Assembly (NCBI RefSeq): GCF_013315695.1
Contig: NZ_CP054353.1
Source: Escherichia coli
Lineage (GTDB): Bacteria; Pseudomonadota; Gammaproteobacteria; Enterobacterales; Enterobacteriaceae
Strand: one strand, 5' to 3'
DNA: 64,000 bases
Numbering within the stretch: position 1 is the stretch's first letter; the number at the start of each line of letters is the position of its first letter. This document shows, piece after piece, positions 53,129-57,734 of this stretch. Under the pieces are notes generated by a model that did no database searches, had not been told where the DNA came from, and saw only the letters and a program-made list of their open reading frames with translations. A program made the translations under genes and the position numbers.

Positions 53129-54199
53129 GGGCAGCGAATACCTGTAACGCTTGGTAATATTGCGCCGTTGTCGCTAAGGCCGTTCCAGCCTGGACGGATT
53201 GCTCTGGTGTGCGAAGGCGGCGGACAACGTGGAATTTTCACGGCTGGCGTGCTGGATGAGTTTATGCGCGCGCAGTTTAATCCTTTCGATCTTTATCTCG
53301 GCACATCTGCCGGGGCGCAGAACCTCTCGGCGTATATCTGCAATCAGCCCGGTTACGCGCGCAAAGTCATCATGCGTTACACCACAAAACGCGAATTTTT
53401 CGATCCATTGCGCTTTGTCCGTGGAGGAAATCTTATCGATCTCGACTGGCTGGTGGAGGCCACCGCAAGCCAGATGCCGTTGCAAATGGACACCGCAGCG
53501 CGGTTATTTGACAGCGGCAAATCGTTTTATATGTGCGCCTGTCGTCAGGATGACTATGCGCCGAATTACTTTTTGCCAACTAAACAAAACTGGCTGGATG
53601 TGATTCGCGCCTCCAGTGCGATACCTGGCTTTTATCGTAGCGGAGTGTCGCTGGAAGGTATTAACTACCTGGATGGTGGGATCAGTGATGCGATCCCGGT
53701 TAAAGAGGCGGCAAGGCAGGGAGCAAAAACGTTGGTCGTCATCCGCACTGTGCCGTCACAAATGTACTACACGCCACAGTGGTTCAAACGCATGGAACGC
53801 TGGCTGGGTGACAGTAGCCTGCAGCCGCTGGTCAATCTGGTGCAGCATCATGAAACCAGCTATCGTGAGATTCAGCAATTTATTGAGAAACCACCGGGCC
53901 AGCTGCGGATATTCGAAATTTATCCGCCGAAGCCATTGCATAGTATCGCGCTCGGCAGTCGGATTCCGGCGCTGCGTGAAGACTATAAACTTGGGCGTTT
54001 ATGTGGGCGTTATTTTCTGGCAACGGTCGGTAAATTATTGACTGAAAAAGCGCCGCTGAGCCGCCATCTGGTGCCGGTGGTGACGCCGGAGTCGATCGTT
54101 ATTCCGCCTGCGCCAGTCGCCAACGATACGCTGGTTGCCGAAGTGAGCGACGCTCCGCAGGCGAACGACCCGACATTTAACAATGAGGATCTGGCTTGA
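53129..54199 (+). CDS. yjjU: Patatin-like phospholipase YjjU
   Basis: Probable GTG start preceded by aggaag; GGGxRG and GTSAG patatin motifs. Confidence 0.85.
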   Translation, partial: GQRIPVTLGNIAPLSLRPFQPGRIALVCEGGGQRGIFTAGVLDEFMRAQFNPFDLYLGTSAGAQNLSAYICNQPGYARKVIMRYTTKREFFDPLRFVRGGNLIDLDWLVEATASQMPLQMDTAARLFDSGKSFYMCACRQDDYAPNYFLPTKQNWLDVIRASSAIPGFYRSGVSLEGINYLDGGISDAIPVKEAARQGAKTLVVIRTVPSQMYYTPQWFKRMERWLGDSSLQPLVNLVQHHETSYREIQQFIEKPPGQLRIFEIYPPKPLHSIALGSRIPALREDYKLGRLCGRYFLATVGKLLTEKAPLSRHLVPVVTPESIVIPPAPVANDTLVAEVSDAPQANDPTFNNEDLA

Positions 54200-54975
54200 T
54201 TTGCCGTTTTATCGACACCCACTGCCATTTTGATTTCCCGCCGTTTAGTGGCGATGAAGAGGCCAGCCTGCAACGCGCGGCACAAGCGGGCGTAGGCAAG
54301 ATCATTGTTCCGGCGACAGAGGCGGAAAATTTTGCCCGCGTGCAGGCGTTAGCGGAAAAATATCAACCGCTGTATGCCGCATTGGGCTTGCATCCTGGTA
54401 TGTTGGAAAAACATAGCGATGTGTCTCTTGATCAGCTACAGCAGGCGCTGGAAAGGCATCCGGCGAAGGTGGTGGCGGTGGGGGAAATCGGTCTGGATCT
54501 CTTTGGCGACGATCCGCAATTTGAGAGGCAGCAGTGGTTACTCGACGAACAACTGAAACTGGCGAAACGCTACGATCTGCCGGTGATCCTGCATTCACGA
54601 CGCACGCACGACAAACTGGCGATGCATCTTAAACGCCACGATTTACCGTGCACTGGCGTGGTTCATGGTTTTTCCGGCAGCCTGCAACAGGCCGAACGGT
54701 TTGTGCAACTGGGCTACAAAATTGGCGTAGGCGGGACTATCACCTATCCACGCGCCAGTAAAACCCGCGATGTCATCGCAAAATTACCGCTGGCATCGTT
54801 GTTGCTGGAAACCGACGCACCAGATATGCCGCTCAATGGTTTTCAGGGGCAGCCTAATCGCCCTGAACAGGCCGCCCGTGTGTTTGCCGTGCTTTGCGAG
54901 TTACGACCGGAACCGGCGGATGAGATTGCCGAAGTGTTGCTTAATAACACCTATACGTTGTTTAACGTGCCGTAG
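54196..54975 (+). CDS. yjjV: TatD-family metal-dependent hydrolase YjjV
   Basis: 259-aa ORF beginning at a TTG overlapping the yjjU stop; DTHCH motif. Confidence 0.85.
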   Translation: MICRFIDTHCHFDFPPFSGDEEASLQRAAQAGVGKIIVPATEAENFARVQALAEKYQPLYAALGLHPGMLEKHSDVSLDQLQQALERHPAKVVAVGEIGLDLFGDDPQFERQQWLLDEQLKLAKRYDLPVILHSRRTHDKLAMHLKRHDLPCTGVVHGFSGSLQQAERFVQLGYKIGVGGTITYPRASKTRDVIAKLPLASLLLETDAPDMPLNGFQGQPNRPEQAARVFAVLCELRPEPADEIAEVLLNNTYTLFNVP

Positions 54976-55090
54976 GCCGGACAAGGCGTTTACGCCGCAT
55001 CCGGCCGTTGGCGCACAATGCCTGATGCGACGCTTGACGCGTCTTATCATGCCTACAGGTCTGTGCCGATCCGTAGGCCACATCCGGCAT
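54976..55090. repeat. REP/BIME cluster (at least two REP units)
   Basis: ggccggacaaggcgtttacgccgcatccggcc and gcctgatgcgacgcttgacgcgtcttatcatgcctac. Confidence 0.65.
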
Positions 55091-55091
55091 G

Positions 55092-55955
55092 TCACAAATA
55101 TAGCGCCGGAAATATTAACCGGCTCACCCCGCGCTCCCGTAACGCATCAGCCAGTTGTTCCACATCCTCCGGCGTGGCGCTCGGCCAGCTTTGCGCCTCG
55201 CCATACACGCCGTGGGCATGAAACGCGTTCAGGCGTACCGGAACATCGCCAAGTCCCTTGATTAACGCCGCCAGTTCTTCGATATGTTGCAAATAATCCA
55301 CCTGGCCAGGGATTACCAGCAAACGCAGTTCCGCCAGCTTACCGCGCTCTGCCAGCAAACAGATGCTGCGCTTGATCTGCTGATTATCGCGTCCGGTTAA
55401 TTGCTGATGACATTCGCTCCCCCACGCTTTGAGATCGAGCATTGCGCCGTCACACACCGGGAGCAATTTTTCCCAGCCGGTTTCGCTCAACATGCCGTTA
55501 CTGTCCACGAGGCAGGTGAGATGGCACAGTTGCGGATCGTTTTTGATGGCAGTAAACAGCGCCACCACAAACGGCAACTGGGTCGTGGCTTCGCCGCCGC
55601 TTACCGTTATCCCTTCAATAAACAGAACCGCTTTGCGGACATGGTTAAGCACCTCGTCCACGCTCATGGATTGCGCCATTGGCGTAGCATGTTGCGGACA
55701 CATCTTCAGGCAGGTATCACATTGCTCGCAGGCAGCCGCGCTCCACGCCACTTTGCCGTCGACAATCTGCAACGCCTGATGCGGACACTGCGGCACGCAC
55801 TCTCCGCAATCATTACAGCGCCCCATCGTCCACGGATTGTGACAGTTTTTGCAGCGCAGATTGCAGCCCTGCAAAAACAGAGCCAGACGACTGCCTGGCC
55901 CGTCAACGCAGGAGAAGGGGATAATCTTACTGACTAAAGCGCATCTGCTGTTCAT
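55092..55955 (-). CDS. yjjW: Glycyl-radical enzyme activating (radical SAM) protein YjjW
   Basis: 287-aa ORF with N-terminal CxxxCxxC (CKNCHNPW) and additional ferredoxin-like cysteine clusters. Confidence 0.88.
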
Positions 55956-57477
55956 GGCTTATCACGCGCGGCTGGCGTTCCAGAATACGAGTGTTGCGTG
56001 CGGCTTCTTCTCCCAGCCAGGTAGTGTTGGTGCGTGAACCTTCGGCGCGATATTTTTCTAAATCCGACAAACGCACCATATAACCGGTAACGCGAACCAG
56101 ATCGTTACCGCTGACATTGGCGGTAAATTCACGCATTCCGGCTTTAAAGGCACCGAGGCAAAGCTGTACCAGCGCCTGCGGATTACGTTTGATGGTTTCG
56201 TCGAGCGTCAGAATGTCGCTGATGCCGGAATAATAATAAGCATGATGCGGGGCGACAGTTTGCAGATGGGTAATCGGATCTGGCTCATCGCCATATGGTA
56301 AACGCGCGCCCGGCGTGGTGCCGATATCGGAACTTATCCCCGACTGTGCGTGTAACATGGCGCGTTTTTGCCAGCCATATTTCACGGGGGTATTGGCGAC
56401 AAACTCCGCCAGTTGCGCGCTAATGCGATAACCCACTTCATTTGCGGCGGCCTCTTTACCGTAGCGTGCGGCAATCCCTTCTTTTTCACACAGCAAGTTA
56501 ACCGCTTCCGCCAGCCCATACATGCCAAACATCGGCACAAAACGTTCAGGGTTAATCAGCCCTTCTTTCACCAGGAAGCTATTCTCAAAGAAGTGTGATT
56601 GTTGATAGAGGAATTCACACCGCGCATCGATGATGGCGATCTGCTGTTGGCAGTAGTGCGGTAGAGTGCGCGTAAAGAAGTCCTCCAGCGATTCACTGCG
56701 CTCGGCAATGGCTTTCAGGTTTAGGCGTACCAGCGTGCTGCCACCACCCGCCAGCGGCAGTGAGTTGTAACAGCTCACAATCCCGTAGCCCCCTTTTGTG
56801 AAAATTTTATCATGCACCGGACCGTTGGCGATGTGCGGTTTGCTACATTCACAGATGTTTTTCGCCACTTCCAGCAGCAGGTCATCAGGGGTGATATCAG
56901 GATCGTAGATAAAGGTCAGGTTCGGTGAAACCTGCTTCAGCTCTGCGTCTGCACGTAATATCGCACGGGTAATGGGCGAATCAGACGGGCCGATATTGGC
57001 ATGCATAAAGGCGTCTGGCAGGGTTCTGTCGAGGTAACGCCAGAAACGTTTTATTCGAATATCGATCTCGTCTTGTGTTAGAATTCTAACATACGGTTGC
57101 AACAACGCATCCAGTTGCCCCAGGTAGACCGGCATCGATGTGACCGAAGGAACGTGGTGGTAAAGAATGGTCAGCAGAGAGAGTGCGTCATCAAGATCTT
57201 TTGCGCCTTCCAGCTCCAGCCATTCGGAACCGTTGGCCAAAAAACGGGCGTAATCGGGTAAGACATAGCGCGGTTTGTACGGCGCATGACCTTCAAACAT
57301 ATCGCAGATTACCCCCTCATCCAGCGCGCGGCGGGCTTCGGCAGGCAGCTGTGGGTAAGGCAGATTATTTTCTGCTTCCAGTGCCAGAAAATGGCGCTTC
57401 TGCTCCGGGCTAAGTACCGGGCTGGTGACAATTTGCTGGCAACGTTGTTGCAGTGCATTTTCATGAGAAGTGGGCAT
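55927..57477 (-). CDS. yjjI: Glycyl-radical-enzyme-like protein YjjI (DUF3029)
   Basis: 516-aa ORF; recognised YjjI; overlaps the yjjW start. Confidence 0.85.
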
Positions 57478-57734
57478 CTTCTTTTCCTTTTATGCCGAAG
57501 GTGATGCGCCATTGTAAGAAGTTTCGTGATGTTCACTTTGATCCTGATACGTTTGCCACCACTGACGCATTCATTTGAAAGTGAATTATTTGAACCAGAT
57601 CGCATTACAGTGATGCAAACTTGTAAGTAGATTTCCTTAATTGTGATGTACATCGAAGTGTGTTGCGGAGTAGATGTTAGAATACTAACAAACTCGCAAG
57701 GTGAATTTTATTGGCGACAAGCCAGGAGAATGAA

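Follow-up and report, generated by a model that had tools for sequence, protein, structure and literature searches.

Described glycyl radical enzymes can be sorted by the residues that define their classes. In pyruvate formate-lyase (PFL; PflB, with its activase PflA), two cysteines, Cys418 and Cys419, are adjacent; a Cys-x-Glu motif is the defining feature of glycyl radical eliminases and is found in the 1,2-eliminases (glycerol and propanediol dehydratases, CutC, HypD, IslA, and the sugar-phosphate dehydratases PflD/YbiW); and the anaerobic ribonucleotide reductase NrdD has a second active-site cysteine (C175 in E. coli, C79 in T4), an Asn (N405 and N311, respectively), a C-terminal four-cysteine zinc site, and an ATP cone. 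The subject here is yjjI-yjjW, a gene pair in a 64,000-nucleotide stretch of Escherichia coli DNA (contig NZ_CP054353.1; hereafter the window), which encodes YjjI and its predicted activase YjjW, a radical S-adenosylmethionine (SAM) protein. Because the defining residues of NrdD, PFL, and the eliminases are all missing from YjjI, we place it on a separate branch. Beyond YjjW, the gene families that recur beside yjjI across 41 lineages all belong to nucleoside uptake or catabolism. Our joint reading of activation, FNR-dependent expression, role, and reaction is that YjjI-YjjW may be an anaerobic radical enzyme system of nucleoside or pentose catabolism, to which we give a probability of about 0.55.

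YjjI and YjjW among glycyl radical systems

The identity of the pair is already known rather than new, because existing database annotation (TIGR04040/TIGR04041, PF11230) says as much: the window genes are founding members of these families, from which they do not differ, and RefSeq calls the products "YjjI family glycine radical enzyme" and "YjjW family glycine radical enzyme activase", while the MG1655 record still names a "DUF3029 domain-containing protein YjjI". An earlier note on the window, made from the sequence without database searches, had arrived at the same gene names and the same pairing; RefSeq annotation of both genes bears out the names, and the glycine motif, the fold, and an invariant Cys-loop cysteine support the reading of YjjI as a glycyl radical enzyme. 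It had also called the function unassigned, in agreement with the catalogs: the NCBIfam models are typed "hypoth_equivalog", PF11230 and TIGR04040 are both typed as families of unknown function, the three entries carry neither substrate nor pathway, and full-text literature searches returned no paper that gives YjjI a substrate and no functional study. What is added here are the missing class-defining residues, a promoter with an FNR half-site, and the nucleoside gene neighborhoods.

YjjI matches PF11230 (E = 2e-220, 732.5 bits) and TIGR04040 (787.8 bits against a cutoff of 498.3, residues 11-504), and YjjW matches TIGR04041 (398.9 bits, cutoff 250.2) and PF04055 (E = 8e-15); with scores far over the cutoffs, these are not chance open reading frames (ORFs), and both genes are intact, as the note had said. 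A single-sequence search of the PDB with YjjI gave nothing meaningful, and the link to known enzymes came via profile and fold searches only. The family profile reaches PFL, YbiW, HPAD, and NrdD; in the profile alignment, YGIVS-C236-YN lies on YAIAC418-C419-VS of PFL, and RVTGY on RVSGY, which holds Gly734. An hhalign comparison with E. coli PflB keeps the same register (E = 3e-5) and sets R251 on Arg435 and F157 on Trp333. An AlphaFold2 model built from the family alignment (predicted local distance difference test, pLDDT, 91.7; predicted template modeling score, pTM, 0.91) has the ten-stranded α/β barrel common to PFL and NrdD. A glycyl radical motif near the YjjI C-terminus, which the earlier note had treated as decisive, is found as RVTGY (residues 462-466, with Gly465), in the pattern RVxG[FWY] of the C-terminal glycine loop. 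With a conserved finger-loop cysteine, C236, that aligns with PFL C419, and with a dedicated radical SAM activase gene overlapping its own, YjjI has every sequence and fold feature of the superfamily that was checked.

Across 26 diverse family members, with identity down to 30%, only nine alignment columns are invariant; R462, G465, and C236 are among them, and C236 is the sole invariant cysteine. Across a second alignment of 13 members (37-71% identity to E. coli YjjI), more than 50 residues are invariant, including Ser235, and N238 is nearly so. The invariant polar set in these 13 sequences comprises E62, R70, Y71, D75, Y76, D123, D150, R151, H159, N186, K213, N218, R251, R286, E305, H376, Q378, D384, and R392; its richness in Arg, Lys, and His suggests that the ligand is anionic or very polar.

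YjjW has the motifs of an activase: DGPGSR at residue 19, GGE at residue 120, and, as the earlier note had said, a CxxxCxxC radical SAM motif (CNLRCKNC, residues 31-38) and extra cysteine clusters, namely, two CX2CX2CX3C motifs (residues 47-57 and 76-86) that follow it and, with Fer4 matches, make up a ferredoxin-like insert. An insert with two ferredoxin motifs is shared with the activases of 1,2-eliminases. The best non-self matches of YjjW are hydroxyproline dehydratase activase and TIGR02494, and its nearest characterized relatives are the activases of hydroxyproline dehydratase, sulfopropanediol dehydratase, CutC, and PFL; unlike NrdG, the activase of NrdD, YjjW thus resembles PFL-type activases with a ferredoxin insert. 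In actinobacterial, archaeal, and some metagenomic lineages, the paired activases are merely 240-250 amino acids (aa) long (L001:9557-10309, L086:8621-9364, and L164:9483-10199; L numbers are our labels for yjjI loci) and have no ferredoxin-type Pfam matches; the two auxiliary-cluster motifs are therefore not universal among YjjW-type activases.

If YjjI is a glycyl radical enzyme, to which class does it belong? Its sequence identity to NrdD is 13-17%, and the NrdD models of NCBIfam and Pfam give no match to E. coli YjjI at E <= 0.01. In an hhalign alignment to NrdD, used solely for the absence of NrdD-specific residues, the second active-site cysteine falls in a gap beside R70-Y71, and N404-N405 align with S247-T248. 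C440 is the only YjjI cysteine past residue 330, in contrast to the zinc site of NrdD, and the ATP cone is missing too; with no equivalent of C175 or Asn405, no zinc cysteines, and no ATP cone, YjjI was rejected as an NrdD. PFL and YjjI have several features in common: the glycine motifs are alike, the Cys loops align, the Arg435 position is also Arg in YjjI, and both PflB and YjjI are activated by FNR. However, YjjI is a third shorter (516 against 760 aa), and Ser235-Cys236 replaces the adjacent Cys-Cys pair, for which reason YjjI was rejected as a PFL. Nor is it a standard eliminase: where eliminases have Cys-x-Glu, YjjI has C236-Y237-N238. The 1,2-eliminases, moreover, belong to PF02901 rather than PF11230, and, unlike in 1,2-eliminase systems, no microcompartment genes lie near yjjI-yjjW.

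Gene neighborhoods and competing explanations

The 96 loci compared here represent 41 YjjI lineages (single linkage, 70% identity); ORFs were called, neighbors were clustered without prior labels, and their identities were confirmed by Pfam and NCBIfam. The most frequent neighbor is the activase gene, which directly follows yjjI in 32 lineages, most of the others being contigs that are too short, and wherever the sequence extends far enough an activase gene comes straight after yjjI; at the high-GC loci L001, L138, and L146, the ORF caller picked an antisense ORF (c20) in its place, and the deposited gene calls for L001 do show a radical SAM gene. Next come an ABC ATPase (12 lineages), BPD_transp_2 permeases (9), and a Bmp/PnrA-type binding protein (7), along with PNP_UDP_1 phosphorylases, IU nucleoside hydrolase, PfkB kinase, DeoC, phosphopentomutase (DeoB), cytidine deaminase, adenosine deaminase, and uridine kinase. 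The ABC ATPase cluster alone was not scored as nucleoside-specific because unrelated transporters (e.g., at L095) fall into it. Several other clusters were set aside as pathway partners: the antisense ORF, and an MraY-like transferase, endonuclease III, an M20 peptidase, and an AlkD-like protein, which occur in one or two related lineages or are artifacts. Nucleoside-specific genes lie near yjjI in 10 of the 30 lineages with at least 5 kb of flanking sequence, in 7 of them co-directional and within five genes; nucleoside genes make up 6-10% of genes within 6 kb of yjjI and 2% at 6-8 kb.

The arrangements differ among lineages. In Lachnospiraceae and Eubacteriales, the order is udp-bmp-yjjI-yjjW-ABC-perm-perm-deoC-add-deoB-PNP, with variants (L141, L172, L128, L148, and L159) and gaps of a few tens of bases; on contigs of this type, the pair separates the binding-protein gene of a nucleoside ABC transporter from its ATPase gene. 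Elsewhere it precedes bmp (L139), follows the permeases (L164, L122, and L101), is surrounded by genes for a DeoD-type phosphorylase, a RihA-like hydrolase, and a Bmp transporter (L093), or faces a nucleoside hydrolase and permeases (L097). Gilliamella has deoB-deoD-transporter-add-cpdB-cdd-deoA-(ushA-like)-yjjI-yjjW, all co-directional, and in Enterobacteriaceae, Hafnia, and Edwardsiella the pair is divergent from deoCABD. An earlier context-based analysis put YjjI into a deoxyribonucleoside-degradation module (Hu et al., 2009).

Several observations weigh against our joint reading. About two-thirds of the adequately flanked lineages have no nucleoside genes, and unrelated neighbors are found in Proteus, Providencia, Aliivibrio, Photobacterium, Ferrimonas, an Ilumatobacteraceae actinobacterium, and an archaeon; the lineages are not fully independent, the linkage in Enterobacterales and Orbales perhaps being partly inherited synteny; and the binomial P of 1e-6 to 5e-4 for the association depends on a background of 5-10% that was assumed, not measured. 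The active-site residues of YjjI are assigned by sequence alignment alone, and the hhalign match to E. coli NrdD, with a probability of 65%, is of modest reliability and ambiguous around the Cys loop. [quoted passage not shown] In most lineages the pair does travel as an isolated two-gene unit, it was biclustered with narG and other FNR/NarL-regulated genes in E. coli and Salmonella, and an expression study grouped it with respiration genes. Against this, no other family recurs beside the pair in any lineage, and the nucleoside association is found in at least five gene orders in Proteobacteria and Firmicutes, once inside a transporter operon.

Could YjjI instead be a divergent class III-type reductase that removes the 2'-hydroxyl from a ribonucleotide, ribonucleoside, or ribose phosphate with a formate or thiol donor, feeding DeoC or DNA precursor pools? 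Anaerobic ribonucleotide reductases are its top structural matches, many homologs have weak precomputed PF13597 (NRDD) matches, and deoC and deoB share its operons, but the Ser/Thr at the Asn405 position, the single invariant cysteine, and the missing NrdD determinants and family-model matches make a reductase improbable. E. coli nrdD mutants are not known to grow under strict anaerobiosis, so YjjI would not be a substitute for NrdD. Still less probable is a small PFL-like enzyme that splits a 2-oxo acid into formate and an acyl product. EcoGene lists the Haemophilus ortholog HI0521 as a pflB homolog, and the profile alignment keeps the Arg435 equivalent (R251) and the Trp333 position (F157); PFL chemistry, however, requires the Cys418-Cys419 pair, no PFL family model scores, and acyl-CoA or phosphotransacetylase partners are absent among the clustered neighbors. 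The chance that the pair is a decaying or non-catalytic remnant is close to negligible: a few E. coli records have 402-476-aa versions and no phenotype has been reported, but the pair is intact in 5422 of 5426 complete E. coli genomes, the many invariant residues extend across members of 37-71% identity, and the constant activase pairing, FNR regulation, and abundance in gut Firmicutes all speak against it.

Promoter, gene layout, and distribution

An FNR chromatin immunoprecipitation (ChIP) peak and FNR-dependent expression have been published for yjjI (PMC3688515), yjjI and yjjW are both listed as FNR-activated (PMC2634741), and both are induced anaerobically in Yersinia intermedia (PMC3792023). 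The full FNR consensus, TTGAT-N4-ATCAA with up to two mismatches, is absent from the yjjI promoter; the sole intergenic match, at 57643-57656, was rejected because it is the deoP2 CRP site. When the 120-nt regions upstream of yjjI in 14 genera are aligned, which is how the FNR site was recognized, two blocks prove to be conserved in 10 enterobacterial genera, GGATCAAA and, 21-22 nt downstream, TACAAT or TACACT. The spacing of the blocks matches that of an FNR-dependent promoter with its site centered near -41 relative to a predicted transcription start, in agreement with the published anaerobic expression. By our own conversion, which takes the MG1655 sequence versions to be offset by 1,977 bp, the ChIP peak coordinate 4,615,181 falls ~93 bp upstream of the yjjI start codon, near window position 57570. 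A generic promoter and terminator scan was uninformative for the locus.

The region also carries the control elements of its divergent neighbor. A perfect copy of the DeoR operator palindrome, TGTTAGAATTCTAACA, lies inside yjjI at 57076-57091, where the other strand encodes residues 129-134 (YVRILT); a copy with one mismatch lies in the yjjI-deoC spacer at 57675-57690, 599 bp from the perfect one, and a weak copy with four mismatches at 56797-56812, 279 bp deeper in yjjI. The three copies form what we take to be the classical O1, O2, and OE layout of deo. This layout would put the deoP1 promoter inside yjjI, so that the initial ~400 nt of yjjI are crossed by deoP1 transcripts in the antisense direction. 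The operator within the gene is kept wherever deoC adjoins yjjI and is missing where it does not. The 257-bp yjjI-deoC spacer has two CRP-type sites, TGCGATCTGGTTCAAA (57589-57604) and TGTGATGTACATCGAA (57642-57657). The latter is one base off the CRP site reported by ChIP sequencing for yjjI/deoC in enterotoxigenic E. coli, TGTGATGTATATCGAA; the former lies upstream of both starts, by ~92 bp for yjjI (predicted) and by ~93 bp for deoP2 (inferred), distances at which a CRP/CytR complex could serve both divergent promoters. In one Lachnospiraceae-type nucleoside/yjjI operon, a gene for a Crp/Fnr-family regulator sits just upstream of bmp (L148:5936-6667) and may provide local anaerobic or nucleoside control.

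The ORF list has exactly two minus-strand ORFs here and agrees with the earlier note that yjjW overlaps a 516-aa yjjI (Table 1). The overlap suggests translational coupling, and overlaps of 4-26 nt or short gaps also recur in the gene pairs of distant homologs. The pair is flanked by the convergent yjjV, a TatD-family nuclease/hydrolase gene (54196-54975), and the divergent deoC-deoA-deoB. The same TatD-type neighbor cluster is present on a contig with the Lachnospiraceae-type nucleoside operon (L172:2380-3165); it could be a further tie to DNA or nucleotide breakdown, or a coincidence. The gap between yjjV and yjjW (54976-55091) is full of GC-rich REP-type palindromic repeats; it measures 116 bp here and 419 bp in MG1655, so the repeat array varies among strains.

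Table 1. Features of the yjjI-yjjW locus in window coordinates
Feature	Position	Strand	Remarks
yjjI coding sequence	55927..57477	-	516 aa, ATG start, TAA stop; YjjI-family glycyl radical enzyme
yjjW coding sequence	55092..55955	-	287 aa, ATG start; radical SAM activating enzyme; ORF and TIGR04041, PF04055, and Fer4 families
Overlap of yjjI 3' end and yjjW 5' end	55927..55955	-	29 nt, different frames
Glycine loop RVTGY codons of yjjI (residues 462-466)	56080..56094	-	Gly465 is the predicted radical site; translation check, family alignment
Cysteine loop YGIVSCYN codons of yjjI (residues 231-238)	56764..56787	-	Cys236 is the predicted thiyl-radical residue; translation check
CNLRCKNC codons of yjjW (residues 31-38)	55842..55865	-	CX3CX2C radical SAM [4Fe-4S] motif
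Two ferredoxin-type CX2CX2CX3C motifs of yjjW (residues 47-57, 76-86)	55698..55817	-	Predicted auxiliary clusters; Fer4_9, Fer4_7, and Fer4 matches over residues 44-90
Predicted FNR site CGTATCAGGATCAA	57538..57551	-	Only the ATCAA half fits the consensus; ~41 bp upstream of the predicted transcription start; ChIP peak ~26 bp away
Predicted -10 hexamer TACAAT of the yjjI promoter	57511..57516	-	21 nt downstream of the FNR site; fixed spacing in the alignment
Purine-rich ribosome-binding region AAAGGAAAAG upstream of the yjjI ATG	57481..57490	-	Read from the sequence

Nearly every complete E. coli genome carries the locus: of 5426 examined, 5423 have the 2.6-kb segment with at least 95% identity. 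The region is missing in the other 3, and some E. coli records list shortened proteins of 476, 452, and 402 aa (P0011, P0078, and P0112), which suggests occasional loss, or else differences in annotation or assembly. Relatives of YjjI occur in at least 591 of 100,044 species genomes; the scan used alignment A2, A1 being too divergent, and the matches listed are all gammaproteobacterial, the closest among them coming from Enterobacterales, Orbaceae (Gilliamella), Vibrionaceae, and a record named Xenophilus sp. AP218F. The more distant contexts were taken from exact-protein look-ups and one metagenome scan; relatives occur there in Ferrimonas, in an actinobacterium of the Ilumatobacteraceae, and on a contig bearing archaeal translation genes. 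With a metagenomic member as the query, 3760 proteins were returned at E <= 1e-30, of which the few that are named belong to Lachnospiraceae, Eubacteriales, or Suipraeoptans. Among the gut-type Lachnospiraceae and Eubacteriales relatives from metagenomes (L141, L148, L152, and related loci; P0302-P0421), some clusters exceed 1000 sequences, and many members have weak precomputed matches to both NRDD and PFL-like Pfam families. At 50% identity, full-length YjjI proteins reduce to a few dozen representatives; the family is compact yet abundant.

Proposed mechanism and role

How might the system work? The genes would form a translationally coupled two-gene operon, transcribed only under oxygen-free conditions: FNR dependence is published, and the promoter anatomy puts the predicted site ~41 bp upstream of the start. 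By analogy with the family mechanism, YjjW would carry one [4Fe-4S] cluster for SAM binding plus a pair of ferredoxin-type auxiliary clusters; it would cleave SAM reductively and abstract hydrogen from Gly465 in YjjI, producing a glycyl radical that is stable and sensitive to oxygen. Each catalytic cycle would then pass the radical to Cys236, which would lie at the finger-loop tip within the ten-stranded barrel, and the resulting thiyl would take a hydrogen atom from the substrate.

The neighborhoods point to a role in nucleoside catabolism. We hold with moderate confidence, on the basis of gene context, that the substrate is a nucleoside or a sugar released from one, i.e., a pentose or pentose phosphate. 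The reaction is the weakest step of the proposal. With a single invariant cysteine, none of the NrdD reductase residues, and no internal reductant in evidence, reduction seems less likely than a redox-neutral step on the sugar, either a radical elimination or a rearrangement, although our confidence here is low; the most likely reaction type is a redox-neutral elimination on a polyol or sugar. Candidates, in no order of preference, are dehydration of the 2',3'-diol, release of methanol from a 2'-O-methyl group, elimination of the base from a 2'-radical, and 5'-deoxy sugar chemistry. According to a 2025 paper, the catabolism of 2'-O-methyl nucleosides is largely unexplored, with oxygen-dependent demethylases alone described (PMC12709175).

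More tentatively, YjjI could be the founder of a new reaction class, in which an NrdD-like glycyl radical scaffold carries out non-reductive radical chemistry on a nucleoside or its pentose, either expelling a 2'-substituent (water or, in the case of 2'-O-methyl nucleosides, methanol) or releasing the base. Such a reaction would be an accessory step in the anaerobic nucleoside catabolism of Enterobacterales and of abundant gut Lachnospiraceae, overlooked by gut surveys that are based on PFL domains. We think this somewhat less likely than not. YjjI is among the last E. coli glycyl radical enzymes without a substrate, its gene belongs to the core genome, and metagenome data for gut Lachnospiraceae contain thousands of its relatives. 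To our knowledge, every newly assigned enzyme of the glycyl radical family has so far turned out to catalyze a distinct anaerobic reaction. The neighborhood result cuts an open-ended hunt for the YjjI substrate to a short, testable list of nucleoside-derived compounds; if the nucleoside link is true, an oxygen-sensitive step would be added to the deo/nup pathway, which is regarded as fully understood.

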